Source: an uncultured Bdellovibrionales bacterium
GTDB lineage: Bacteria; Patescibacteriota; Minisyncoccia; Moranbacterales; UBA1568
Length of the DNA stretch: 64,000 nucleotides
NCBI GenBank assembly: GCA_964594215.1
Contig: CAZQLN010000004.1
Coordinates: 862-64,861, forward strand
Direction: 5' to 3'
Position numbers and translations under genes: made by a program. This document shows, piece by piece, positions 3,001 through 63,697 of this stretch (its first letter is position 1; every line of letters begins with the position of its first letter). Below the pieces are notes generated by a model. The model saw nothing but the letters and a program-made list of their open reading frames with translations, made no database searches and had not been told where the DNA came from.

Positions 3001-5200
3001 CAATGAGGTCATTGAGAGAGCTTGCTCCCGTACCACCATTTGCTACTGGGAGAACACCAGTGACTTCACTAGAAAGATCTACCTGAGTTCCGAGGGTTGA
3101 CGCAATAGTGATACTGCCGCCGCCATTGGTCACCGTGATACCACTACCCTGAGTCAGAGTAGCCAGTGAGTAACCGCTCCCGTTACCGATCAAAAGTGAT
3201 CCATTAGCAGCAGAGCTACCATCTACACCAGTACCTCCACGAGATGGATTGAGCTGTGCTTCTCCTTGTAACGAAGAAGCTCCTGTAAAATACGCTACTT
3301 GGCCAGCAGATCCAGAAGCGGTCGCGCCACCCACACCAGATACAGAAGCACAACCCCATTCATTGGTGGTATTGTTCCAAGAAAGTACATCATCCTGGGC
3401 ACAGCCCTGAAGCAGAGTCAATTCGTTAGTACCACTTCCCTGAAACTCTAAACCGGAGAATGATGCAACTGCGCCGGCTCCATCAGCAGAATCAAGAAGG
3501 TCGATAGCGATAGTAGCTGCCCCTCCTTCACTCGCTGAAGATCCGCTAATACCATTACCACTGTTAATAGTTGCTACATAGTTACCAGTCGTATCAGTAC
3601 TCAATGCAACTGAATCTGAAGAAATAGTAATTACTCCGCTACTTGTAATTGTCGCGTCACCCGAGAGAGTGGCAAACGTCGGTGCACCAGCAGTAACTCC
3701 TAAGAGGAGTTGACCATTGGTACCGGCTGAGGTGACTTGAACGGCACCAGTACCATTACCATAGAGGACTCCATTAGAAGTGAGGGTGGTAGCTCCGGTG
3801 CCTCCGTTAGCGACTGGAAGAGTGCCTGTTACTTCGGTGGTGAGGTCAACCGTAGTACCAAGAGTGCTCGCTACGGTGATACTGCCTGATCCATTGGTGA
3901 TAGTGATACCTGAGCCTTGAGTAAGAGTGGCTAGTGAGTAACCACTACCGTTACCAATCAAGAGAGAACCATTAGCGGCTGAACTACCGTCTACACCAGT
4001 ACCTCCACGAGATGGATTGAGCTGATTCTCGCCAGCTAGTGAGGAGATTCCATTCCAGTAAGCGACCTGACCACTCGTACCTGTACCTGTGAGCCCTGCT
4101 GAAAAAGAAGTACACTCCCAAACATTTGTCGCATCATTCCAACTCACTCCCTGCCCATTAGAACAACCCTGAAGCAAAGTCAATTCATTATTGCCAGCTC
4201 CACCAAACTCAAGACCCGAATTTGATGAGGTTGCCCCTGCTCCATCGGCTGAGTCTAGAAGATCAATAGCAATTGTCGGAATACTTCCTTCGCCAGTCAA
4301 TCCCCCACTAATACCATTACCATTGGTAATACTCGCTACATAATCACCGGTAGTATCAGTGCCAAGATCGATACTACCAGAAGCTCCAACACTGATGTCA
4401 GAAAAAGTTGATCCATCGTTAGAGAGTTCCCATGCTTGAGTCGTACCGTTGTAGCGAAGAGCTGGCGCATTTGTAGCGCTTGATACTGTGAGATCGAAAT
4501 TATTACCACTCAGTGCCGTACCAGATCCAATATTGAAAATCTGCTCAGTCGTTCCAGTGTCTGTGTTTTGCGCATGAATATCATCAAGAATTTTATCATT
4601 ATCCTTGAGATAACCTTTGATGGCACTTGCTGGTAATGCTGGAATAAAACTAGCGTCCAGTTTTCCACCCTTATCAAGAACCGGAATGTCACCTTCATTG
4701 GTTCCAACGGTTCTTCCTTGGAGGAACTGCGTATTGAGAGCACGAGGTACAGAACCCAACTTCTTACGCGGTGTCATTTCGGAGTCACCTGCAACACGAA
4801 TACCGATATAGTAATCTCCCGAATCAAAGTTAATGGCATTAGAAAATGCATTGATACCTCCAAGAGAAGCTCGGAAAATACCGTTTTTGACTTCTACAGT
4901 TTGAGTTTCTTCCCAAAGTTTAGGATCAGAATTTGATGGATAGGCATCGGCGGTAGTACGATTTGCTGCATACAAAGCGAAGCGAACCTCATAAGTTCCA
5001 TTGGTAACAATCTGGTTATCTGAGTTAAAAAGCGATGCCGAGATAGAAATGAGGCGAATTGAGTTCGAATTTGATTGGTTTGACTGCGCAAAAACAGACT
5101 TTTGGTTAAAGCCCCACCCGATTATCACCACCAAGCTTAAAGCTATGAAGAGTGATGTGTATGCTGTTTTTCGGTTTTTATTTTTTACATAAAATAGCAT
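1..5200 (-). CDS. Giant secreted/cell-surface repeat protein, N-terminal 1,733 codons. The 3' end lies beyond position 1. Start ATG at 5200-5198 with a signal peptide (MLFYVKNKNRKTAYTSLFIALSLVVIIGWGFNQKSVFAQS). The body is 200-250 aa repeats with recurring motifs TEVTG(T/V)LPV(A/T/S)NGGTGA(T/S)(T/S)L, LLIGNGSGYSLATLTQGSGITITNG and TTGNYVA(T/S)ITxGNGISG.
   Basis: I translated the minus strand by hand in the frame whose codon first bases are congruent to 1 mod 3. The frame agrees at both ends (5200 and 58) and I met no stops in the stretches checked. The ORF track omits it because no stop falls inside the window. Nucleotide repeats of variable period (about 600-765 nt) are plainly visible. Confidence 0.6.
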   Translation of the reverse strand, partial: MLFYVKNKNRKTAYTSLFIALSLVVIIGWGFNQKSVFAQSNQSNSNSIRLISISASLFNSDNQIVTNGTYEVRFALYAANRTTADAYPSNSDPKLWEETQTVEVKNGIFRASLGGINAFSNAINFDSGDYYIGIRVAGDSEMTPRKKLGSVPRALNTQFLQGRTVGTNEGDIPVLDKGGKLDASFIPALPASAIKGYLKDNDKILDDIHAQNTDTGTTEQIFNIGSGTALSGNNFDLTVSSATNAPALRYNGTTQAWELSNDGSTFSDISVGASGSIDLGTDTTGDYVASITNGNGISGGLTGEGSIPTIAIDLLDSADGAGATSSNSGLEFGGAGNNELTLLQGCSNGQGVSWNDATNVWECTSFSAGLTGTGTSGQVAYWNGISSLAGENQLNPSRGGTGVDGSSAANGSLLIGNGSGYSLATLTQGSGITITNGSGSITVASTLGTTVDLTTEVTGTLPVANGGTGATTLTSNGVLYGNGTGAVQVTSAGTNGQLLLGVTAGAPTFATLSGDATITSSGVITISSDSVALSTDTTGNYVATINSGNGISGSSASEGGAATIAIDLLDSADGAGAVASFSGLEFQGSGTNELTLLQGCAQDDVLSWNNTTNEWGCASVSGVGGATASGSAGQVAYFTGASSLQGEAQLNPSRGGTGVDGSSAANGSLLIGNGSGYSLATLTQGSGITVTNGGGSITIASTLGTQVDLSSEVTGVLPVANGGTGASSLNDLIALGTNTTGNYIASITNGNGISGGVATEGGAPTLAVNILNSADGSGATNSNSGLEFQGASNNQLTLLQGCTNNDVLSWNDTTDVWSCSSVSGAGGITGTGSANQVAYFTSSSVVASEAQLAPLRGGTGVNGSAAANGTLLIGNGSGYSLTTLTQGSGITITNGSGSITVASTLGTTVDLTTEVTGVLPVANGGTGASSLNDLIALGTNTTGNYIASITNGNGISGGVATEGGTPTLALGDLTANWNQNGAFDIVLNNASSELSLLESAGATFYATLDAADLSGNRTLTLPNATGTLATLDGGQTFTSAVWNGTAVGAQYGGTGVDGSSAANGTLLIGNGSGYTLATLTQGGGISITNGAGTITVAASLGASVDLTTEVTGTLPVTNGGTGAASLTTNGILYGNGTSAIQVTAAGTNGQLLLGNTGGAPIFTTLSGDAVVSNTGVLTISGDSVDLTTDTVGNYVATITAGSGISGTASSEGATPTLAIDLLDTQDGTGITSSNSGLEFQGGGSNELTLLQGCVQDDVLSWNNTTNEWSCASVSGVGGATASGSAGQVAYFTGTSSLQGENQLNPSRGGTGVNGGSAPNGTLLIGNGTGYSLATITDGAGITVTEGAGTLTITATLGTDIDLASEVTGTLPVTSGGTGTTTLTANRILLGNGTGAVQVTNAGTNGQLLLGVTAGAPAFATMSGDAAITNAGVVTISADAVALSTDTTGNYVATITAGNGLSGSAASEGATPTLALGDLTSDWTQTGAFDIILNNAASELLLLESAGDTFYATLDAGDLSSNRTLTLPNVSGVIATINGGQTFTSAVWNGTVITPQYGGTGVDASLTNNGELLIGNGAGFSLATLTQGSGITITNGSGTISVSATLGTDINLATEVTGTLPVSSGGTGATTLTSNGVLYGNSAGAIQVTSAGTNGQLFLGNTGTAPAFATMSGDAAITNAGVVTISSNAVALTTDTTGNYVATITAGNGISGSSSSEGGTPTIAVDLLDSADGA

Positions 5201-10193: not shown

Positions 10194-10277
10194 GCCGAGG
10201 TGGTGGAATGGTAGACACACGGGACTCAAAATCCCGCGATAGCAATATCATGAGGGTTCAAGTCCCTCCCTCGGCAC
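10194..10277 (+). tRNA. tRNA-Leu (anticodon CAA), type II with long variable arm
   Basis: Acceptor GCCGAGG/CCTCGGC. Anticodon stem CGGGA/TCCCG with loop CUCAAAA. T-arm GAGGG-TTCAAGT-CCCTC. Discriminator A. No encoded CCA. Confidence 0.7.
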
Positions 10278-37192: not shown

Positions 37193-39175
37193 TTAGGGTG
37201 TTGCTTTTACGAAACCACTCTGCTCAGTTACACTCTTATCTTGCTCTAGATAGTTTGTAACCTTTGCGCGCTCCGTAATGACTTCTTTTTTAGTGAAACT
37301 TTCCTTAGCTTCGAATGTAGCTGTTTTGACTAACTCCACATCTTTACCTACCTGACTCTGATTAGGCGTAATAGCTACCTGAAATTGAAACTCCTTCTCT
37401 TTGCCTGAGGATAAAATACCTACCTCCCAAACAAGTTCATTGGTGCGCGCCTTCCATTCTACGGTTTCTCCATTAGGGTAGGACTTTTCTTTATACACGA
37501 CTCCGCTCGGAAGGACAAATGTTATGCGGGCTTGAGAAAGGTCGTTTGAAGAACTTGCTACCTTGGTACGAATAGTATAGGTAGTCTCACTCCCTACTAC
37601 TGGCGGTAATGGTCCGGTATTAGCTATATGGTCACCGCTGAAAAACGGCGACACCTGAAGCGCCACCAGGGCACCTACTTTGACCTGAAGGAGGTTGCTT
37701 GCAATAGTTTTATTACCAGTCAAGGTACTCTTGACATCAGGGCTATCGATAGTAGCTACTGACTTAATAGCAATGTTTTTAGGATTAGCATTAGCCGGAA
37801 ATTCTTTCACCACTGGTACGGTAAATGAAATCTTTCCTGACTGTCCAGGTTCGAGACGGGCCAAAGCTGGAATATCCGCAGCTTTCCAAGTAATTTTTTT
37901 CGTGTTTTGGTCATAAAAACCCTGACTCAGCTGAAGATTGGCAATATCTAGATAGGCCGTATCAAGCGCGAGAGTCACTATTACATCGCGCATACCGAGT
38001 GCTGATTCGTTCTTATACTCAATCTCATAATTCAACATGTCGCCTGGATTAGCAACGAGCTCATTATTGCCGTTTACCAACTGAGAGATGGTAAGTGGTG
38101 TGGCAATCATTTGCGTTCGCTTCTCTACCATGTTGTAGGTAAAGAGTGAGTTGTCACCCTGAAGAATACCAATAGTAGCCGAAAATGTTTTGGCCGTATC
38201 GCGAGCGCCTCCAAGACTACCATGAATCACTATCTTGCCATTCTGATTCGGTTTCAACTCAGGGAGGAGCCATGTATTATTACTCTCACTTGGCACTATA
38301 TCAGATGACAAGTACTGAAAACCTTCTGGATATTTGGCAACCACACGAAGGTTACGAAAGGTTTCTGGACTCCTATTCTCATACGTCACAACATAGTCGA
38401 GCTCTTGACCAGGAGCCACCTCACCAGGGGCGCTGACTTCAAAGAGGAGGGGTGAAGTGGCCAGAACCACCTGAAAGTTCGCTTTGGTATCAAACTGACT
38501 GCTCGTGCTTTTTGGTGTATAGCGAAGTGTGGCTTCGAAGTTTGCCTTCTCACCCTTGCCTCCATAAAACTTACCACTAATAGTAAATTTCTTGTTTGCA
38601 CCTCTCGCCAATCCGCCCACTGGTATTTCTACTCGCTTACCAGCCATTTTCATTTCTGGAGTCATTTCAATCTGGAAGGTATCGGGCAGAGCTATAGTCA
38701 GCGTAGTTTTCTCTATCTCATTCCAACTATTATTGGCATATGTCAGGTCAAAAGAGACTCGCTCAGCACTCGCTACACTCGCTGGTCCACTGATAAAAAT
38801 ACTAACGGCACTCTGACGCTTGAGATACGTGTATCCCGCAAAACTCGCTCCCCCCAAAACAAGTAAGGCAACTAGAGAACCTATAACAATATAGAGCTTT
38901 TTCAGCCTGGCTTTCTTAACATCAGGGCTGACTAGATAGATTTCTTGTTTAGGAGCTATCTGCCACTCTTCTTTTTTTTGAAAGGCTTGCTTTTCTTGGT
39001 CAATTTCTTCTTGAGTATGCTCTTCGTGCACAGCTAAACGTGCCTTATCTAGGTGAGTATCACGACTATGGAGTTGTTCATTTAAATCTTCGAGACTCAT
39101 ATGAGGTATATTTGTTTTGACTACCTCTATACTAGCAAAATTGAGAGATGAAAGAAACGCTAGTGAGCTATCCAA
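37193..39175 (-). CDS. Membrane-anchored surface protein with DUF11/CARDB-like conserved repeat domains
   Basis: One TM (LYIVIGSLVALLVLGG) followed by repeated beta-sandwich-like segments (PGQELDYVVTYENRS..., PGDMLNYEIEYKNES...). Confidence 0.4.
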   Translation of the reverse strand: MDSSLAFLSSLNFASIEVVKTNIPHMSLEDLNEQLHSRDTHLDKARLAVHEEHTQEEIDQEKQAFQKKEEWQIAPKQEIYLVSPDVKKARLKKLYIVIGSLVALLVLGGASFAGYTYLKRQSAVSIFISGPASVASAERVSFDLTYANNSWNEIEKTTLTIALPDTFQIEMTPEMKMAGKRVEIPVGGLARGANKKFTISGKFYGGKGEKANFEATLRYTPKSTSSQFDTKANFQVVLATSPLLFEVSAPGEVAPGQELDYVVTYENRSPETFRNLRVVAKYPEGFQYLSSDIVPSESNNTWLLPELKPNQNGKIVIHGSLGGARDTAKTFSATIGILQGDNSLFTYNMVEKRTQMIATPLTISQLVNGNNELVANPGDMLNYEIEYKNESALGMRDVIVTLALDTAYLDIANLQLSQGFYDQNTKKITWKAADIPALARLEPGQSGKISFTVPVVKEFPANANPKNIAIKSVATIDSPDVKSTLTGNKTIASNLLQVKVGALVALQVSPFFSGDHIANTGPLPPVVGSETTYTIRTKVASSSNDLSQARITFVLPSGVVYKEKSYPNGETVEWKARTNELVWEVGILSSGKEKEFQFQVAITPNQSQVGKDVELVKTATFEAKESFTKKEVITERAKVTNYLEQDKSVTEQSGFVKATP

Positions 39176-39882
39176 TCAGCGAAACGACGAGTGACCATCT
39201 CAAGCTCACGCATGTCTTGTTCATTAACTTGGATTTTCATGCAAGGACGAAGATCATTAGTAGCAAACAGACGCATAAGTTTGATGGTATTTTCCTGGAT
39301 ATAGAAGCTCTCTTTGAATTCCCGTGACTCTGCTTCGGTGAGTACTCCACCAGCTTTTGGACTGAAAAAATGTCTTTCGCCAGTTCTCAGTTTCACACCT
39401 GACTGAACTGATATGTGCGTCTCGATATGATACCCGAGATGACTAAACAACTGGAATAAAAATACTTGTGAGAGCAGTCGTACCCGCTCAGTCTTTTTTT
39501 CTTTAGCAAGCTCATCGGCCTGTATGAGGTATTTTTTAGTCAGAGTGAAAAGAGCTTCATCTGGTTCTTCCATATCAACAAATTTCTCAAGAATACTGAG
39601 ACATTGAGAAACCAAAAGGAGAACCTCGTACTGCTCCCGTAATGCAGCGAAGACATCTTCCGCTACCGCCGAAGATACTCTTCCCATGCCCTTGGTTTTG
39701 TTGATGATGATGAGAGCTAAGCTCAAATTCTCAAGCTGACCAGCCAGTTTAGCTTCGGGCTTACGTACCCCCTTAGCCATTACTCTGATTTTCCCCTGTT
39801 CTTGAGTATAAAGCGTATACAGGCGGTCAGTTTCACCTACCTCTTTTTTGCCTAATACTATCGAATTATAACGATATTCCAT
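39160..39882 (-). CDS. recO: DNA repair protein RecO
   Basis: N-terminal OB-fold pattern (IVLGKKEVGETDRLYTLYTQEQGKIRVMAKGVRK), typical of RecO. Confidence 0.7.
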   Translation of the reverse strand: MEYRYNSIVLGKKEVGETDRLYTLYTQEQGKIRVMAKGVRKPEAKLAGQLENLSLALIIINKTKGMGRVSSAVAEDVFAALREQYEVLLLVSQCLSILEKFVDMEEPDEALFTLTKKYLIQADELAKEKKTERVRLLSQVFLFQLFSHLGYHIETHISVQSGVKLRTGERHFFSPKAGGVLTEAESREFKESFYIQENTIKLMRLFATNDLRPCMKIQVNEQDMRELEMVTRRFADWIAH

Positions 39883-39885
39883 GAC

Positions 39886-42870
39886 TTAGCTACGTTTGAG
39901 CCAAAAAGTGAACTTCTCGCCTTCAATGTCGACTGTTTGAGTGTATTCAGCATCAGCTAATTCTTGATTATTCACACCACCGTTAGCAAGCACTTCTCCC
40001 GAAATATCATCTTGATGCACTGCAAATACCTCTTCCTTACCACTGTATCCTAGAACGATACGGTCTTCCACATTAAACAGAGCCTTCTTACGTCCCTCCT
40101 GAATAGCTCGAATGATTTCTCGAGCCTCACCTTCAAGTCTGAGTTTTGCAGTGATCTCTGTACCTAGAGCAATAGGTCCTTCTCGATAGTCTTTAACATT
40201 GAGTTCCTCTTTGACGATATCCTGAAATACCTCTTCGATCTTCGGACCAACCATATACTCAAGCGGCTGACGTACCTTTATTTTTGCATCTGTTCTAAAT
40301 TGCAAACCCCTAGTGATAATTTCTCGAGTAAGAATCATCTGCTCAATGAGATCGGTATCTATCTCTGTATCTACCTTGGGCCACTCCGCAAGATGCACAG
40401 ATTCTTCACCAGTTAGGTTACGGTAGATTTCTTCGGAGATAAATGGAGTGAATGGTGCCATCAATCTGGAAAGATCTACAAGCACTGTATAGAGCGTTTC
40501 ATAAGCAGCGTATTTATCGCTATCATTTTCATTCTTCCAGAAGCGCTTACGGCTGCGACGAATATACCAATTAGAGAGATCATCTACAAATGGAGCGATG
40601 AGTCGCGCTGCTGATGCGGGTCGATAACTATCTAATTCCTCAGTCATATTTTGGATGAGGAGCTGCAGTTCAGATAATATCCACTTATCCAAAATATTAG
40701 TTGATAGACCGCGGCCTTCCGAAGACTTTGGCGTAGGAGACCAATTATCAATTGTTGCGTAGGTCGTGAAGAATGAATATGAGTTCCACAACATACGAAA
40801 AGTATTTCTCGTGATGCTACCCAGATCATTCTCGGAAAAAGAAAGATCTTCGGCAATCACTACCGGCGAACTAAGCACATAGAGACGTAAAGCATCGGCG
40901 CCATAGGTATCTATGGTCATCATTGGATCTGGATAGTTATTGAGCTTCTTACTCATCTTGCGGCCATCTTCCGCTAGTACTGTCCCATTGACTACGCAGT
41001 TTTCAAAAGCATTTATCCCCTTGAGAGCGGTTCCAAGCATATGAAGGTAGTAAAACCAGGCTCGCGTCTGGTCAAGCCCCTCTGCGATAAAATTAGCAGG
41101 ATATGTCTCAAGCTCCCCCTCACCCATGTAGTGTTTACTCGCATAGGGCATAGAACCACTATCAAACCATGTATCTAATACATCCGGGATGCGCTTCATA
41201 GTTTTTCCACAAGCACATGGAAAAGTGATTTTATCGACAATATGTTTATGGAGATCATCTACCATCACCCCACTCTTCTCCTTAAGTTCAGCTCGTGACC
41301 CAACCACGACCTGTTCTCCACACTCACAAACCCACAGCGGGATACAGCTCGCCCAGAAACGTTGGCGGCTAACTGACCAATCTCTGGCACCTTCAAGCCA
41401 CTTTCCGAATCTCCCATTTTTTATATGCTCTGGTGACCAATTAATTCCCCGAGCATTCTTGATAGCTAAGTCTTTGATTTTTTCTATGGCTACAAACCAG
41501 CTACTCGTCGCATAGTTAAGAAGTGGTGTATCACAACGCCAACAGTGCGGATAGCTGTGTTCGTACTTCTCCTTAGAAAAAAGCAGTCCCTTAGCTGCTA
41601 AAGACTTGATAATTTCAATATCAAAGGCTTGCGGATTCTCAATCGGCTTCACTTGTTGACCAGCAAACTCTTTGACTTCGTCCTTAATAGTTCCATCCAT
41701 GCGTACATGCTGGACCCAGGGAAGGTTGTAGAGTTTACCGAGGGCCATGTCATCCTCACCAAAAGCCGGAGCCTCATGAGCGATACCTGTCCCTATGTCC
41801 GTGGTCACGAAGTCGGCATGGTATATCTTCCACCCATTCTCTCCATTCTCAAGAGATTCATTTTTAGAGTAATCCTGAAACGGCGGGAGATAGGTTTTTC
41901 CGATAAGATGAATCCCTTTTAACTCTTCAATAATCTCATATGCGTATTCTAAATCTTTACCACTTTCTAAAACATACTCTAATTCTTCTTTCGAAAGAGA
42001 TCCTCCTCCTCTTTTAATGTATTCTTTCAACCTATCAAACGCTAAAATAACAATCTCTGGAGTACAATCAACCCTAGATTCCGTACTATTTGGTTCATAC
42101 AACCTCTCACCTTGTTTCGTTCTAAAAAATTTAACTTTTGCATAGTTAATATCCTTCCCTACTGCCAAAGCAACATTACCTGGGAGTGTCCATGGAGTGG
42201 TCGTCCAAGCCAATAAATAGGTACCGGGCTCATCTACTAATTCAAACTTAGCAGTAACCGCCAAGTCCTTCACGTCTTTGTAGCCTTCGCTTACCTCTTG
42301 CTGTGATAGGGTTGTTTCACAGCGTGGACAGATATGCATGGTTCGATAACTCTCATAGACCAGATTCTTTTCCCAGAGTGACTTCCACACCCACCAGATA
42401 CTCTCCATATAGTCCACGTCCATGGTGTGATACGCATGCTCCATGTCGACAAACCGTCCGAAACGTCTCATCACCGTCTCCCAGTCCTTGGCATAAGAAA
42501 GCACCTTAGTGCGACAAAGATCATTGAACTTCTCGATACCAAAAGTCTCAATATCCTTCTTATTCTTAAACCCAAGCTCCTTCTCAACTATGTTTTCAAT
42601 AGGCAGCCCATGGCAATCCCAACCCCACTGACGTTCTACCTGATAGCCCTGCATGGTCTTGTAGCGAGGAAAGACATCCTTCACCAACCCTGGCACGAAG
42701 TGTCCGTAGTGGGGCAATCCAGTGGCAAATGGTGGTCCATCATAAAAACGATATTTCTCCTTCCCTTCACGGTTAGAAATAGATTTCTCAAAAATTTTCT
42801 CACTCTCCCAGTACTTCAAGATTTCTTCTTCAAGTTTCGGAAAGTTTACCTGTGATTCTACTTTTTTCAT
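39886..42870 (-). CDS. ileS: Isoleucyl-tRNA synthetase
   Basis: HYGH, KMSKK/KMSKS-like motifs. 994 aa. Confidence 0.9.
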   Translation of the reverse strand: MKKVESQVNFPKLEEEILKYWESEKIFEKSISNREGKEKYRFYDGPPFATGLPHYGHFVPGLVKDVFPRYKTMQGYQVERQWGWDCHGLPIENIVEKELGFKNKKDIETFGIEKFNDLCRTKVLSYAKDWETVMRRFGRFVDMEHAYHTMDVDYMESIWWVWKSLWEKNLVYESYRTMHICPRCETTLSQQEVSEGYKDVKDLAVTAKFELVDEPGTYLLAWTTTPWTLPGNVALAVGKDINYAKVKFFRTKQGERLYEPNSTESRVDCTPEIVILAFDRLKEYIKRGGGSLSKEELEYVLESGKDLEYAYEIIEELKGIHLIGKTYLPPFQDYSKNESLENGENGWKIYHADFVTTDIGTGIAHEAPAFGEDDMALGKLYNLPWVQHVRMDGTIKDEVKEFAGQQVKPIENPQAFDIEIIKSLAAKGLLFSKEKYEHSYPHCWRCDTPLLNYATSSWFVAIEKIKDLAIKNARGINWSPEHIKNGRFGKWLEGARDWSVSRQRFWASCIPLWVCECGEQVVVGSRAELKEKSGVMVDDLHKHIVDKITFPCACGKTMKRIPDVLDTWFDSGSMPYASKHYMGEGELETYPANFIAEGLDQTRAWFYYLHMLGTALKGINAFENCVVNGTVLAEDGRKMSKKLNNYPDPMMTIDTYGADALRLYVLSSPVVIAEDLSFSENDLGSITRNTFRMLWNSYSFFTTYATIDNWSPTPKSSEGRGLSTNILDKWILSELQLLIQNMTEELDSYRPASAARLIAPFVDDLSNWYIRRSRKRFWKNENDSDKYAAYETLYTVLVDLSRLMAPFTPFISEEIYRNLTGEESVHLAEWPKVDTEIDTDLIEQMILTREIITRGLQFRTDAKIKVRQPLEYMVGPKIEEVFQDIVKEELNVKDYREGPIALGTEITAKLRLEGEAREIIRAIQEGRKKALFNVEDRIVLGYSGKEEVFAVHQDDISGEVLANGGVNNQELADAEYTQTVDIEGEKFTFWLKRS

Positions 42871-42879
42871 ACTTCTGAA

Positions 42880-43140
42880 ATTAAAAAATCCTCAACGCAA
42901 AAGAATATGCGCTAAGGACGTTTAGAATCAACGTGGTACCACCTTAGTTCATCTGCCACTCAGGCAGACCTTCATTGTATGGCTATTACGGGCCTACCCG
43001 ATGAGTTCTACTGCCAGTCCGAAGTTCTAGGTATAGAATAAGCTGCTTCTTTTGGCTTTCTTCTCATGGCCTGTCTCGACACAGCACGTACGTGCTGGAC
43101 GGACTCCGAGGTGATGCCTGCCAAGTATTAGGCGGGGCCT
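42880..43140 (-). promoter_or_regulatory. T-box riboswitch-like leader of ileS. Contains an antiterminator T-box sequence and an intrinsic terminator.
   Basis: Minus-strand RNA contains ACUAAGGUGGUACCACG (plus 42931-42949), matching the T-box consensus AAUUAGGGUGGNACCGCG. Immediately 3' lies a terminator hairpin CCUUAGCGCA...UGCGUUGAGG plus U-run. An AUC Ile codon sits in an upstream loop candidate (CUCAUCGGG). The roughly 290-nt leader is GC-richer than its surroundings. Confidence 0.5.
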
Positions 43141-43182
43141 CTTCACTGCCTTTGTAAATCTATCTTAGCAACCCTTTGGCTA

Positions 43183-43893
43183 TTAAGCAATCTCAAGAAT
43201 CATCGGTAAATGATCTGAGACTTCGTTTTTTGGCACCTGAAAATCCTTTACTTCTACGCCTGGCCCCACGAAAGTATAATCAGCAAAAAGATGCTTGTTA
43301 TCTGGATACTTTGCCCAGGCAATTTCATTCCTTGTTGTGTCAATAGTATATTCTCTAATTAGATTCTTATAGCCGCACTCTTCAAAAATCTTGATGCTCT
43401 TCGTATCAGGGAAAAGATTGAAGTCTCCCATAATAATATGCTTGCCTGGCTTATTCTTAAGAAACTCTAGAATCTCTCTAGACTGAGCTATGCGCGCTTC
43501 TGTATCCTGCTTATCTGCGGGAAAAGCAGCTCCGTGAATATTACAGATTATATAATGCTCATTTCCTCTCATGATATCTACCCAAAGTCCCAATCCCTGA
43601 TCCCTATTGTGCGGAAAAAAGACTCCAGAAGCCAACAAGGTTATGTCATCGCGCAAACAGGTCATCTGACAGAGATCATCCTTCGTCAAATATTCATATT
43701 TGCTGGTGATAATATTTTGCCATCCTTGTAATTCTTGACTCCGGATACGCTCTGTTTCATCAGAAGCTTCCTGAAACAAGAAAATATCTGTATCACGAGC
43801 CTGTGTAGACACAAATTCTCTGAGTGCCTCCGCGCAGCCACCTCGCCAGGTATTGAGTGAAAGAATTTTCATATCGCCGATGTCCCTTGCCAC
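43183..43893 (-). CDS. Endonuclease/exonuclease/phosphatase (EEP) family protein. The probable start is MKILSLNTW.
   Basis: EEP motifs (LSLNTW, FLFQE, SDHLP). Confidence 0.55.
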   Translation of the reverse strand: MARDIGDMKILSLNTWRGGCAEALREFVSTQARDTDIFLFQEASDETERIRSQELQGWQNIITSKYEYLTKDDLCQMTCLRDDITLLASGVFFPHNRDQGLGLWVDIMRGNEHYIICNIHGAAFPADKQDTEARIAQSREILEFLKNKPGKHIIMGDFNLFPDTKSIKIFEECGYKNLIREYTIDTTRNEIAWAKYPDNKHLFADYTFVGPGVEVKDFQVPKNEVSDHLPMILEIA

Positions 43894-44650: not shown

Positions 44651-46240
44651 TTACATTTTTTCTGGAGCACTCACTCCAATAAGACGAAGGGTCTCTCCAA
44701 GCACTTCTTTGGTAGCCGCTACCAAAGCCAAGCGTGCCCGTGACAAGTCTTGGTTTTCAGTATCAACCACCTGACACTCAGCATAATATGAGTGAAACTT
44801 ATCAGCCAGACGAATAGCCAGTTGTGGTAGACGGTGTGGCTCACACTCCTGTGAGGCCAATTCAAGAAACTCTTGAAACCCAAATATCTCACGCATCAAA
44901 GTTTTTTCCTTATCATGGGTAAGGAGACTAAGGTCAGCACCTCCATACTCTAGAGTATCATCGGCTCCCTTAGCCAAAATACTAGCCATACGAGCATGAG
45001 CATACTGAGCATAGAAAACTGGATTTTTCTGAGAACGCTCTTCTGCCAAGCCCAAATCGAAGGTCATATGAGTATCTGGTGAATATTGAAGAAAAAAGAA
45101 GCGCGTCACATCATGCCCCACTAGTTCAAGAAGCTCATCTATAGTCACTGTATTACCCGCTCTTTTACTCATCTTCACTTCTTCACCATCTTTAACCAAT
45201 TTCACTAACTGCATAAGAAGAAAAGTTATCTCTCCCTTAAAACCAAGCGCTCGCGCCACTGCCTCGAAACGCTTGGTATAACCATGATGATCAGCTCCAA
45301 AGGTTTCGATAATTTTTTCTACTCCCGCTTCAATATAACCAAGAATATGCCCCGCATCAGAGGCAAAGTAGGTCTTACTACCATCAGCCTTGATTAATAC
45401 ACGATCTTTATCATCGCCATATTCGGTAGTCCGAAGCCAGAGTGCGCCCTCTTCTTCAAAAGTTCTTCCTTGGGTTTTCAACATCTCAATAGCCTTCTCT
45501 ATCATGCCTGATTCTACAATAGCTTGCTCAGAGGTCCATATATCAAAGTGAATTTGCATGCCTTGCTCTATAGTAGGCTTGATATATTGATCGAGAACGA
45601 GTTGAGCCGCTTTAGTCCCAACCTCAAAAACATCAGCGCTAGACTCTCCAAGTTTTTCACGAAGTAACACTATATAATCACCGCCATATACAGCCTGTTC
45701 ATCTCCAAGTACGCTGTGTCCCAGTTTAGTAATTTGTTCGCCCGCATCATTGATATAGTACTCATTAGTTACTGTATAGCCAGTCTTGCGAAGCAGTCGT
45801 CCGAGAGAATCACCATAAAATCCTCCGCGACCATTCCCGAGATGCAGAGGACCCGTCGGATTAGCAGAGATAAATTCATTATTAACCTGAATACCTTTTC
45901 CTATTGTCGAATCCCCAAAATGCTCTTTTTTTTGAATAGCTTCTTGTATGGCATCAGTAAATACCCTACTCTCTAGATAAAAATTTAAATGCCCTGGTCC
46001 AGCTACTTCTACCTGAGCAAAATCATTTCTGAGCCTTGGTAGTAAAAGCCTAGCAATTTCTTGCGGATTTTTCAGCGCTCCTTTAGCTACAACAAGAGCA
46101 ATATTAGAAGTGTATTCACCAAACTGCTCATCCTTAGGGAGCTCTACCGTAACCGCCGGAATATCAAAAACAGGCAAAATACCTTCTGCCTGAAGATCTT
46201 GTAAAACCTTTTCGATTTTCTTAGCAATGTCAGCTTTCAT
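44651..46240 (-). CDS. argS: Arginyl-tRNA synthetase
   Basis: Class I motifs, C-terminal DALR anticodon-binding domain. 529 aa. Confidence 0.9.
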   Translation of the reverse strand: MKADIAKKIEKVLQDLQAEGILPVFDIPAVTVELPKDEQFGEYTSNIALVVAKGALKNPQEIARLLLPRLRNDFAQVEVAGPGHLNFYLESRVFTDAIQEAIQKKEHFGDSTIGKGIQVNNEFISANPTGPLHLGNGRGGFYGDSLGRLLRKTGYTVTNEYYINDAGEQITKLGHSVLGDEQAVYGGDYIVLLREKLGESSADVFEVGTKAAQLVLDQYIKPTIEQGMQIHFDIWTSEQAIVESGMIEKAIEMLKTQGRTFEEEGALWLRTTEYGDDKDRVLIKADGSKTYFASDAGHILGYIEAGVEKIIETFGADHHGYTKRFEAVARALGFKGEITFLLMQLVKLVKDGEEVKMSKRAGNTVTIDELLELVGHDVTRFFFLQYSPDTHMTFDLGLAEERSQKNPVFYAQYAHARMASILAKGADDTLEYGGADLSLLTHDKEKTLMREIFGFQEFLELASQECEPHRLPQLAIRLADKFHSYYAECQVVDTENQDLSRARLALVAATKEVLGETLRLIGVSAPEKM

Positions 46241-47896: not shown

Positions 47897-48299
47897 GGGG
47901 TTGTTTAGACTCGACAGCGTGTACTTTCAAAATATGCAAGCCGACCCCGAGAGCATGGTCGTAAATCTTACTCTCACAATGATAATTGCAAACATCATTT
48001 CAAAGACGAAGAGTGCACTAGCTAACGCTTTTGCTCCCTCTTACGCTCTTGCTTTCGCTTAATTGTGATCGCCATCAGAACTCCTATTCTCGATAAAGAA
48101 CTTCTGGTGTCATATTCATCGAGACGACCGTAAGGATTTCGCTTTTTTTACCCTATTGGTTGTATGCAAAAGAAAGAACAGACAAAAAGTTTTGTTTCTT
48201 TTCTCATTTTTGTTCTGTCACTCCAAAAGAAACTACGCTTGTAGAATATTTTGAAAAAACATGAACTGGACATGGGTGCAATTCCCATCAACTCCACCA
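47897..48299 (+). ncRNA. ssrA: tmRNA (SsrA). Candidate tag ORF GCU AAC GCU ... UAA encodes ANAFAPSYALAFA.
   Basis: 5' GGGGUUGUUUAGACUCGACAGCG matches GGGGCUGAUUCUGGAUUCGACGGG. 3' GGACAUGGGUGCAAUUCCCAUCAACUCCACCA matches the tRNA-like end. The acceptor pairs GGGGUUG/CAACUCC with a G3-U wobble. It sits immediately downstream of smpB. Confidence 0.65.
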
Positions 48300-62674: not shown

Positions 62675-63697
62675 TTATAACAAGTATTTCACTTCAGATG
62701 TTGTCTCCAAGACTTCTGGATAGCTCTTTCTGAAAGACTCCACTATTTTTCTCACCTCATCAAAACTCTTAGCCATCATCATATCAGCTCGTAGTTCCTT
62801 GGCCAGTGGAAAATTATTAATATACGCTCGGTAGTGTTTTTTCAAAAGTTCAAAGCTCTTTGTATCACCATAATATTCTATATAGAGTTCTGTGTGACGG
62901 AGCGCAGCGTCGAGTTTTTCATTTACAGTTATTTCTTTCTTGTCAGAGTCAAAAAGCCATGGATTGCCAAAGATGGCACGCCCAAACATAATGCCATCAC
63001 AGCCTGTCTCACCCACCTTAGTCTTTGCATCAACCATATCTATCACATCACCATTACCAATGATGAGAGTTTTGCTATTCATCTCATTACGAATCTCTAC
63101 AGCACGCTTCACGCGGTCCCATCTAGCTGGCACCTTAGACATATCTTTCTTCGTGCGAGCGTGAAGCGTAATAGCAGCTGGTTCTACCGAAAGCAGTTCT
63201 CGAAGCCACTCTTCGAGATTGTCTTCATTGAACCCAAGTCGTGTCTTCACCGAAACAGGTATCTTGTTGTCCGTACTATCAACTCCTTTTTTAGCAGAAA
63301 GAATGAGCTGTTTAGCTAGCTCTGCATCTTTCATACAAGCTGCTCCCGCTCCTTGTTTCATGACATTCTTATCAGGACAGCCCATATTGATATCCACGCC
63401 ATCAAACCCAAGTTCGGCACACAGTTTAGCCGCTTCATACATATGTTCTGGATTGGAAGTAAACAGCTGAGCTACAATGGGTCGTTCTTCTTCACGAAAA
63501 GCTAGATCTTTGAGAAGTACTTCACGTCCCTTAGGATGGCAGAGTCCATCAGCTGCTACAAACTCTGTCCAAAGCACATCGGGACGACTATACTCTAAAA
63601 TAAAGTTACGGAAAACGACATCCGTTACATTCGCAAGTGGTGCCAAGACAAAAAAAGGCTTATTTAAGTTATTCCAAAATCCATTTCTCATAAGCAA
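62675..63697 (-). CDS. tRNA-dihydrouridine synthase
   Basis: LAPLANVTD...FRNF Dus N-terminal motif, TIM-barrel FMN enzyme. Confidence 0.8.
   Translation of the reverse strand: MLMRNGFWNNLNKPFFVLAPLANVTDVVFRNFILEYSRPDVLWTEFVAADGLCHPKGREVLLKDLAFREEERPIVAQLFTSNPEHMYEAAKLCAELGFDGVDINMGCPDKNVMKQGAGAACMKDAELAKQLILSAKKGVDSTDNKIPVSVKTRLGFNEDNLEEWLRELLSVEPAAITLHARTKKDMSKVPARWDRVKRAVEIRNEMNSKTLIIGNGDVIDMVDAKTKVGETGCDGIMFGRAIFGNPWLFDSDKKEITVNEKLDAALRHTELYIEYYGDTKSFELLKKHYRAYINNFPLAKELRADMMMAKSFDEVRKIVESFRKSYPEVLETTSEVKYLL

Follow-up and report, generated by a model that had tools for sequence, protein, structure and literature searches.

A probable isoleucine-specific T-box riboswitch with a reduced Stem I and an intrinsic terminator upstream of ileS in a Patescibacteria-like genome

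The 64,000 nucleotides (nt) of contig CAZQLN010000004.1 analyzed here (assembly GCA_964594215.1, positions 862 to 64,861; hereafter, the window) carry on their minus strand a gene for isoleucyl-tRNA synthetase, ileS. We propose that the 273-nt leader preceding this gene, at 43155..42883 on the same strand, is a T-box riboswitch specific for isoleucine, with transcription attenuation as its most likely means of controlling ileS, a reading to which we assign a probability of roughly 0.85. A preliminary description of the window had pointed to a T-box leader specific for tRNA-Ile in this region. Its observation is confirmed, and the interpretation is supported by a canonical antiterminator, by two mutually exclusive folds, by an AUC (Ile) triplet that is invariant in 23 leaders and by the presence of ileS downstream. 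The regulated open reading frame (ORF; 39886..42870, 994 amino acids, ATG at 42870..42868) matches the IleS family TIGR00392 with 883.9 bits (cutoff 621) and contains the Pfam domains tRNA-synt_1, Anticodon_1 and, at its C-terminus, DUF5915. It is a type-2, "eukaryote-like" enzyme, the nearest solved structures being 1ILE (754 bits) and 8C8U (737 bits), as against 315 bits for the type-1 structure 1FFY. All leader coordinates below are on the minus strand and agree with a letter-by-letter comparison with the sequence.

Results

A conserved and covarying leader upstream of ileS

The IleS protein of the window was scanned against one genome per species, which yielded 80 loci, and a covariance model (R1) was built from ten relatives and 33 hand-assigned pairs, the window being excluded. 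R1 recovers the window leader at full length (43155..42883, 114.4 bits, E 1.7e-28), together with ten other leaders outside its seed, at 38-142 bits. Over the window and the 80 loci it identifies 21 leaders, the window's and 20 others, mostly in metagenome-assembled genomes (MAGs) of Candidatus Moraniibacteriota; the T-box core recurs upstream of ileS in 20 of the 80 loci. In the remaining 59 ileS loci, which include Falkowbacteria-, Komeilibacteria-, Buchananbacteria-, Peribacteria- and Saccharibacteria-labelled MAGs, Spirochaetes and Lentisphaerae, R1 finds nothing credible, giving only two noise matches (E 0.22 and 0.63). A third noise match is the reverse strand of the terminator of one of the leaders themselves (L001). 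Metagenome contigs were also scanned for the core variant of the clade, AAGGTGGTACCACG, unconditioned on ileS or on a decoding domain, and among the 80 loci obtained in this way R1 identified a further pair of leaders that combine AUC with a short Stem I, L094 (104.9 bits) and L160 (65.1 bits). Each stands before a type-2-like ileS gene that shares 44-46% identity with that of the window, each has a strong terminator followed by a U-run, and with them the leaders considered here number 23.

The pairings of the leader are borne out by its variation. In the 21-leader alignment, 96.0% of cells are standard pairs, compared with 75.5 ± 1.1 in shuffles, none of 500 of which reaches that figure; double-sided, compensatory changes occur in 24 of the 33 pairs, the covariation score reaches 0.590 against 0.212, and with the 3' partners displaced by 1-3 columns pairing falls to 32-50%. 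RNAalifold, run on a plain MAFFT alignment, recovers the kink-turn (K-turn) stem, Stem I, Stem II, Stem IIA, Stem III, antiterminator helix A2 and the terminator, with compensatory changes in 24 of 42 pairs. Read from 5' to 3', the leaders share a single plan: a promoter; the K-turn; Stem I with NNAUCA; Stem II with GAAGAAA opposite AGUAGAA; a Stem IIA hairpin CGGG-NNNN-CCCG followed by UAAYAGC, its loop pairing with GCC or GCU; a purine linker; a variable Stem III; RAGGUGGUACCRCG; and a terminator with its U-run. The window leader follows this plan with two additions, the hairpins at 43135..43117 and 43104..43073.

An antiterminator and a terminator compete for one strand

The T-box sequence, AACUAAGGUGGUACCACG, occupies 42949..42932 and contains ACUAAGGUGGUACCACG, the match to the antiterminator consensus that had drawn attention to the region. 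Its exact core, RGGTGGNACCRCG, occurs once in the window, and tolerating up to one mismatch gives two matches against 0.20 expected by chance. The one-mismatch copy, AGAUGGGACCGCG at 63112..63124 (-), lies inside a 340-amino-acid ORF (62675..63697) and is taken to be a chance match, not a second leader. A constrained fold of 42912..42949 gives an antiterminator in which helix A1 pairs CUAAGG (42947..42942) with CCUUAG (42917..42912) and helix A2 pairs ACGUU with AACGU around the loop GAUUCUA. The 7-nt bulge between the two helices, UGGUACC (42941..42935), presents the UGGU that would pair with the 3' ACCA of the tRNA, just where it had been envisaged for the NCCA end of tRNA-Ile. Bacterial tRNA-Ile has A73, a discriminator compatible with UGGU. 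Across the 21 leaders UGGU is invariant (21/21), pairing amounts to 100% in A1 and 95% in A2, and four pairs show compensatory change. The window leader accordingly has a AGGGUGGNACCGCG-like T-box sequence, an antiterminator with a 7-nt bulge and a UGGN able to pair with tRNA NCCA, as expected of the family.

The intrinsic terminator (42883..42919) has a 12-base-pair (bp) stem, GUCCUUAGCGCA (42919..42908) with UGCGUUGAGGAU (42899..42888), an 8-nt loop (42907..42900) and a U6 run (42888..42883), and is reported by a terminator scan. The hairpin that had been written as CCUUAGCGCA-N8-UGCGUUGAGG-AUUUUUU is hence real, although 12 nt, not the 10 originally given, separate its U-run from the ATG (42870..42868). 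Because CCUUAG serves both as 3' strand of A1 and as 5' strand of the terminator, the two structures are mutually exclusive, and folding both alternatives bears out the overlap that had been noticed. In the window the 3' domain has an energy of -35.8 kcal/mol in the terminator state and -20.8 kcal/mol in the antiterminator state, and this modelled preference of ~15 kcal/mol is as expected of a switch that would be off by default; among 19 Moraniibacteriota-type leaders the terminator fold is favored by 8.8-14.8 kcal/mol. The terminator helix is 94.7% paired in the 21 leaders, versus about 40% when slid, and RNAalifold also predicts it. The competing helix lies 12-37 nt before the start codon (more in L044), and a U-run of at least 4-6 bases follows it directly in 23 of 23 leaders. 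From the U-run to the start codon the tail is AU-rich and 6-31 nt long (86 nt in L044), and no Shine-Dalgarno element was found in or beside the hairpin, or in the tails, across the leaders.

These features bear on whether the leader acts on transcription or on translation. It could be a translational (class II) T-box, its competing helix serving as a sequestrator of the ribosome-binding site and its U-run being incidental or a second layer of control. Such a view is encouraged by the decoding half of the leader, since a K-turn, a short Stem I with AUC, an S-turn, Stem IIA/B and a link to ileS are the design of the translational class, by a literature in which leaders without an elbow platform suit translational control, and by the Shine-Dalgarno-like GAGGA/AAGGA within the 3' strand of the competing helix. 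That motif, however, is separated from the start codon by 18 nt in the window and by up to about 20-30 nt elsewhere, too distant for a Shine-Dalgarno element; the U-run follows the helix in every leader, and the tail after it is unpaired and devoid of Shine-Dalgarno sequences; seven relatives have a different first gene after the leader but a hairpin and U-run of the same design; and actinobacterial leaders were described in 2005 as carrying Shine-Dalgarno sequestrators "instead of terminators" (PMC1262725). We find no sequestrator/anti-sequestrator platform in the window leader and consider translational control an unlikely explanation. The preference for the terminator state, the U-run and the AU-rich tail free of Shine-Dalgarno elements point instead to transcription attenuation, and not to masking of the ribosome-binding site.

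A separate observation concerns translation initiation itself. In the window (42871-42882) and in the equivalent tails of 20 relatives, ileS or the leading gene of its operon has no recognizable Shine-Dalgarno sequence ahead of it; an example of these AU-rich tails is AAUUUCAGAAGU-AUG. This suggests that initiation in the lineage may rely little on Shine-Dalgarno pairing, at least for the gene behind the ileS leader.

A K-turn and a very short Stem I with the specifier

The 5' strand of the K-turn (43143..43150) comprises the C-stem GGC (43150..43148), the bulge AGU and GA (43144..43143), and fits the Rfam T-box consensus gCgaUGA as aligned in two relatives (L003, L015). The 3' strand (43068..43106) comprises GA (43106..43105), an inserted hairpin (43104..43073) and the C-stem GCC (43070..43068). 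The pattern GGC-NNU-GA ... GA-GCY is conserved and falls on the K-turn positions of Rfam, and the RNA would be predicted to kink here in three dimensions. The C-stem is 98.4% paired in the 21 sequences, with GC/GU/AU/UA variation at the outer pair, and RNAalifold recovers it independently. A hairpin between the 3' GA of the K-turn and the 3' strand of the closing stem is found in the window and in L005, L006, L007, L009 and L014; the insert is facultative, being present in about a third of the leaders and missing in 14 of 21. The covariance model places the 3' side of the C-stem at the distal GCC, and the minimum-energy fold of 43150..43066 is a three-way junction. In L005 the closing stem is swapped to AGCC/GGCU, a compensatory change that fits the distal strand only; pairing to the distal strand, and with it a three-way, k-junction-like arrangement, is therefore supported.

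Stem I itself is short (43108..43141), with a base helix of GAGG (43141..43138) and CCUC (43111..43108) that is 100% paired and has compensatory GC-to-AU exchanges, in either direction, at three of its four pairs. A minimum-energy fold of the 5' domain that pairs GUGA with UCAC was set aside in favor of this covarying helix. In the window the loop contains an extra hairpin (43135..43117), CCGCC-UAAUACUU-GGC(A)GG, followed by C-AUC-A. Most relatives have a plain hexaloop, NNAUCA, and are better called ultrashort; the short form, with a comparable small hairpin in the loop, is shared by the window, L004 and L160. In 18 of 21 leaders Stem I has 4-6 bp and an AUC-bearing loop of 6-8 nt, six in most. 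The AUC triplet that had been placed in an upstream loop is indeed found in the Stem I loop (43115..43113), followed by the purine A at 43112. It is invariant in all 23 leaders, while the two preceding loop bases vary freely; the following base is a purine in 22 of the 23, and specifically A in 21.

A putative promoter (43162..43190), identified by eye and by homology, lies immediately upstream. Its -35 element TTGCTT (43190..43185), which overlaps the TAA stop codon of the upstream ORF, is separated by a 17-nt spacer from an extended -10 element, TG-c-TAAGAT (TG at 43170..43169, -10 at 43167..43162), so that the region of interest reaches 43190, and transcription would start near 43155. A generic promoter scan does not list this promoter, and the proposal rests on conservation: in most of the 21 leaders the pattern (a TTGATT-like -35, 17 nt, TGnTAnnnT) ends 9-18 nt before the K-turn. 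A promoter so close to the K-turn leaves no room for a long Stem I upstream.

This matters for the idea that we are looking at an ordinary full-length T-box whose long Stem I has been overlooked, either because it lies further upstream or because the extra hairpins represent it. A 273-nt leader with two such hairpins (43135..43117 and 43104..43073), in a gap that seems roomy at first sight, might invite that idea. The conserved promoter, however, abuts the K-turn, only 15-17 nt separate its two GA elements in most relatives, and the Rfam model deletes 72-82 Stem I positions; the extra hairpins are missing in most homologues, are too short to reach the tRNA elbow and have no conserved AG-bulge or distal-loop motifs. 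We give this idea almost no credence. The leader has no long Stem I whose AG bulge and distal loop would make up the double T-loop platform; a short specifier helix stands in its place ahead of the regulated ileS.

Stem II, the pseudoknot and Stem III

Stem II (43001..43067) has a lower helix, AUGAG (43067..43063) with CUCAU (43005..43001), and an upper helix (43056..43013), separated by an S-turn internal loop with AAGAAA (43062..43057) opposite AGUAGAA (43012..43006). All five pairs of the lower helix and all three upper pairs show compensatory changes. In the alignment of ten sequences, the GUA-A bases of the S-turn sequence GUAGA never vary, and its second G is kept in at least 90%. The IIA/B region (42981..43000) begins with the Stem IIA hairpin CGGG-UAGG-CCCG (43000..42989), 100% paired, and contains an F-box-like CCGUAAU (42991..42985) and a pseudoknot, IIB, between GGC (42994..42992) and GCC (42983..42981). 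The pseudoknot occurs in compensatory variants (GGC/GCC, AGC/GCU, GCAC/GUGC, GCGC/GCGC, ACUU/AAGU, GCUU/AAGC), and the complementarity of the loops with their own partners is 2.98, compared with 2.61 ± 0.11 for permuted loop-tail partners, a value reached in 10 of 5000 permutations. A purine linker, AUGAAG (42975..42970), follows, its flanking AUGAAG and GA(A)G purines being conserved, and leads into Stem III, GUCUGCC-UGAGU-GGCAGAU (42969..42951), in which all six modelled pairs show compensatory change and which is 93% paired. The leaders thus combine a Stem II S-turn with a IIA/B pseudoknot and F-box, L160 (leader at 3567-3731) being the exception: it has no IIA/B pseudoknot, and its Stem II runs directly into the purine linker and Stem III.

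Recognition by Rfam

With permissive filters, the Rfam T-box model RF00230 matches 43062..42911 with 45.6 bits, at an E-value of 5.6e-9 in a 451-nt search and 7.9e-7 over the whole window. The search that the preliminary description had recommended therefore returns a match, below the gathering score of 93. At gathering thresholds no T-box is reported in the whole window, the only hits being a transfer-messenger RNA (tmRNA) and a tRNA-Leu, and the permissive whole-window scan finds no second T-box. Two other Rfam matches in the intergenic region are noise (E >1), which leaves RF00230 as the sole credible family. The 3' half of the model, with the AGUA of Stem II, the F-box, Stem III and the antiterminator, is aligned with high posterior probability, and its Stem I is shrunk in the window from 82 model positions to 14 nt. 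In one relative (L003) RF00230 aligns the K-turn and base helix properly and deletes 72 distal Stem I positions. We attribute the low scores to the natural absence of the distal Stem I, that is, of the tRNA-elbow platform. The placement of the window's Stem I at 43062 is, by comparison with relatives, a misalignment, caused by the two extra hairpins; the true Stem I is at 43141..43108. The leader thus departs from the formal definition of a T-box in two respects, the distal Stem I and the Rfam threshold. The preliminary description had proposed to drop its claim if an above-threshold Rfam match and mutually exclusive pairing were both lacking; only the former is, and the claim stands.

A low Rfam score might also mean that the leader is a decaying relic, or resembles a T-box by coincidence, and regulates nothing, all the more so in candidate phyla radiation genomes, which are reduced and thought to be poor in regulation, and given that no leader is present in L002, which is closely related, or in L038, a Moraniibacteriota locus further removed. 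Against this, all functional motifs are intact and conserved down to ~48% IleS identity, with abundant compensatory changes, and an exact T-box core is unexpected by chance. We regard a relic or a coincidence as very improbable.

The locus, its neighbors and its relatives

The leader lies in a gap of 312 nt (42871..43182) between an Exo_endo_phos-family ORF (43183..43893) and ileS. The preliminary description identified this region correctly and gave its length as 310 nt; it placed the element at 42880-43140, where it is indeed found, and the element reaches past these coordinates, running from about 43155 to 42883. The region was also said to be richer in G+C than its surroundings, and it is, though modestly (0.475-0.48 versus 0.38-0.44 in the flanks).

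Two genes upstream of ileS lies argS (44651-46240, -), and recO (39160-39882, -) is directly downstream. No T-box-like leader precedes argS or any other gene in the permissive whole-window scan, ileS being the sole case in the 64 kb. The IleRS of the window is also strongly similar to the mupirocin-resistance models MupA and MupB (714-730 bits), under their cutoffs. The only tRNA gene in the window is a tRNA-Leu(CAA) at 10194-10277 (+). A tmRNA or RNase P at the leader, considered and rejected in the preliminary description, is unsupported, and that rejection is upheld: the tmRNA of the window sits elsewhere, at 47897-48299 (+), where it matches RF00023 over the full-length model with 113.1 bits and has 40% GC.

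The expectation that the genome is Patescibacteria-like agrees with the closest relatives of its IleS, whose labels include Candidatus Moraniibacteriota, a group within the Patescibacteria/Parcubacteria. These relatives (57-75% identity) belong to MAGs labelled Candidatus Moraniibacteriota or, in third-party records, "uncultured Bdellovibrionales". Many third-party MAGs bearing the latter title, and others titled Gammaproteobacteria, have IleS proteins and leaders near-identical in design to those of Candidatus Moraniibacteriota (the records concerned are L001, L003-L006, L008, L010, L012, L013, L016 and L040), and judging by these sequences their labels look wrong. Across Candidatus Moraniibacteriota the leaders are conserved; they are also present in at least one MAG labelled Peregrinibacteria, an unclassified MAG and two further uncultured lineages.

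The regulated unit is always ileS, or a small ORF plus ileS. A small ORF stands between leader and ileS in seven relatives (L001, L005, L006, L007, L008, L009, L012), where the leader would control an operon of two genes; the ORF encodes a NUDIX protein in L001 (2484-2996) and a HIT protein in L006 (2560-2985), L008 (2569-2991) and L012 (2571-2993). Both the NUDIX and the HIT family have members that hydrolyze dinucleoside polyphosphates, among them Ap4A, which aminoacyl-tRNA synthetases make as a by-product, and a functional link of these ORFs with ileS is possible but speculative. L002 has a HIT-like ORF directly before ileS, yet no T-box within 3 kb. Among the other metagenome matches, three of high G+C content that were considered as actinobacterial comparators (L107, L082, L101) proved to be ordinary T-boxes before valS-like genes, and the remaining high-GC matches precede ORFs other than aminoacyl-tRNA synthetases or have no checkable ORF; compact matches (L146, L130, L096, L156 and others) are partial matches to canonical T-boxes of other genes.

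Discussion

We infer that the leader would bind tRNA-Ile, read out its charging state and take its decision at the level of transcription. Transcription would start a few bases before the K-turn, and the nascent RNA would form a very short Stem I displaying AUC plus the following A. The S-turn purines of Stem II and the Stem IIA/B pseudoknot would then clamp the codon-anticodon helix formed with tRNA-Ile(GAU), decoding as in the solved actinobacterial ileS T-boxes and without a platform for the tRNA elbow. An uncharged tRNA would pair through its 3' ACCA with the UGGU of the bulge and stabilize the antiterminator, stacked on Stem III, and RNA polymerase would continue into ileS. With a charged tRNA, or none, the 12-bp terminator and its U6 run, the more stable alternative, would form and transcription would stop 12 nt before the start codon.

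Several observations weigh against this proposal. The distal Stem I platform has been described as essential for transcriptional T-boxes, where it speeds up tRNA capture before the terminator is made (PMC7583486), and its absence makes a purely transcriptional mechanism unexpected for this architecture. The Rfam gathering score of 93 is reached neither by the window leader (45.6 bits) nor by any of the relatives tested (30.3-57.6 bits). The main covariation count was made on a model-fitted alignment of related sequences; the single-sequence folding energy of the 5' domain is no better than that of shuffles (z -0.05 to -1.3), and that of the whole intergenic region has z = -1.9. Finally, no tRNA-Ile gene was found in the window or in 25 related loci.

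Surveys of T-boxes list Firmicutes, Actinobacteria, Chloroflexi, Deinococcus-Thermus and a few delta-proteobacteria, and no lineages of candidate phyla (PMC2494555). Our full-text literature searches brought up no paper in which T-boxes are connected with Patescibacteria, the candidate phyla radiation or the lineage names. The leaders described here would extend the range of the T-box to the candidate phyla radiation, and their presence in these tiny genomes suggests that direct, RNA-based sensing of tRNA-Ile charging has been retained there. Such leaders are likely to have been missed systematically by annotation, given that the clade scores 30-58 bits against a threshold of 93 and that the TBDB class II model was searched only in Actinobacteria and among Rfam-detected leaders (PMC7778990).

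We would tentatively go further, at slightly less than even odds, and suggest that these leaders constitute a natural class that has not been described: T-boxes without a tRNA-elbow platform that nevertheless act by transcription attenuation, conserved across Candidatus Moraniibacteriota. The combination of a platform-less Stem I with an intrinsic terminator runs counter to the generalization that assigns the platform to transcriptional control and the ultrashort Stem I to translational control. If the suggestion is correct, the elbow platform would be no requirement for co-transcriptional tRNA sensing, and the clamp formed by S-turn and pseudoknot would be enough, perhaps aided by a slow or paused polymerase. 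The kinetic model could then be tested on a natural example, and engineering would gain a compact scaffold (about 185 nt in relatives). A reduced ileS design common to Actinobacteria and the candidate phyla radiation also bears on how the two groups are related, or on a joint transfer of gene and leader: the ileS T-box with reduced Stem I may be ancestral to a group including both, or may have travelled with type-2 ileS.

Comparison with known T-boxes

The closest known relatives are the ileS T-boxes with ultrashort or short Stem I found in Actinobacteria (Mycobacterium tuberculosis, M. smegmatis, Nocardia farcinica; "class II" in TBDB), a likeness that rests on published descriptions and structures, not on direct sequence alignment. 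Like the window leader, these precede ileS and carry AUC; they have a short helix near the 5' end that carries the specifier and a following purine in its apical loop or beside it, no double T-loop elbow platform, a basal K-turn, a GAA/GUAGA S-turn, a IIA/B pseudoknot, a Stem III and a UGGN bulge. The published S-turn sets G37-A38-A39 opposite G67-U-A69-G70-A71 (PMC7583486), and the S-turn bases and specifier position of the window match the N. farcinica and M. tuberculosis ileS T-box structures from the same source; the decoding features of the actinobacterial class are also described in a preprint (10.1101/2023.02.28.530422).

The window leader departs from this closest subclass in its expression platform and in the phylum of its host. 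Where the actinobacterial leaders have a Shine-Dalgarno sequestrator (PMC1262725 and the 2023 preprint), it has an intrinsic terminator and a U-run before an unmasked start. The hosts are Patescibacteria here and Actinobacteria in class II, and some of the leaders described here have in addition the facultative K-turn hairpin with its three-way junction. The division of labor between the two platforms may be less than absolute. The abstract of Sherwood et al. 2015 is said to call "many", rather than all, such leaders translational, and a few terminator-coupled leaders with a short Stem I may exist in Actinobacteria as well.

A 2020 review holds that transcriptional T-boxes generally need a long Stem I with its platform, whose dispensability marks the translational class (PMC7583486). 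The canonical transcriptional T-boxes (RF00230; tyrS and ileS of Bacillus subtilis) have a Stem I that continues above the specifier with an AG bulge, a distal loop and a hinge, all of them absent from the window leader; their specifier sits in an internal loop with an S-turn of its own, whereas that of the window sits in a terminal or near-terminal loop. T-boxes of the glyQS type resemble the window leader in being minimal natural T-boxes that act by transcription attenuation, as we propose for the window. Their reduction, however, has gone the opposite way: glyQS keeps the long Stem I and its platform and dispenses with Stem II and IIA/B (PMC7583486), while the leaders of the window and its relatives have kept Stem II and IIA/B and lost the platform.

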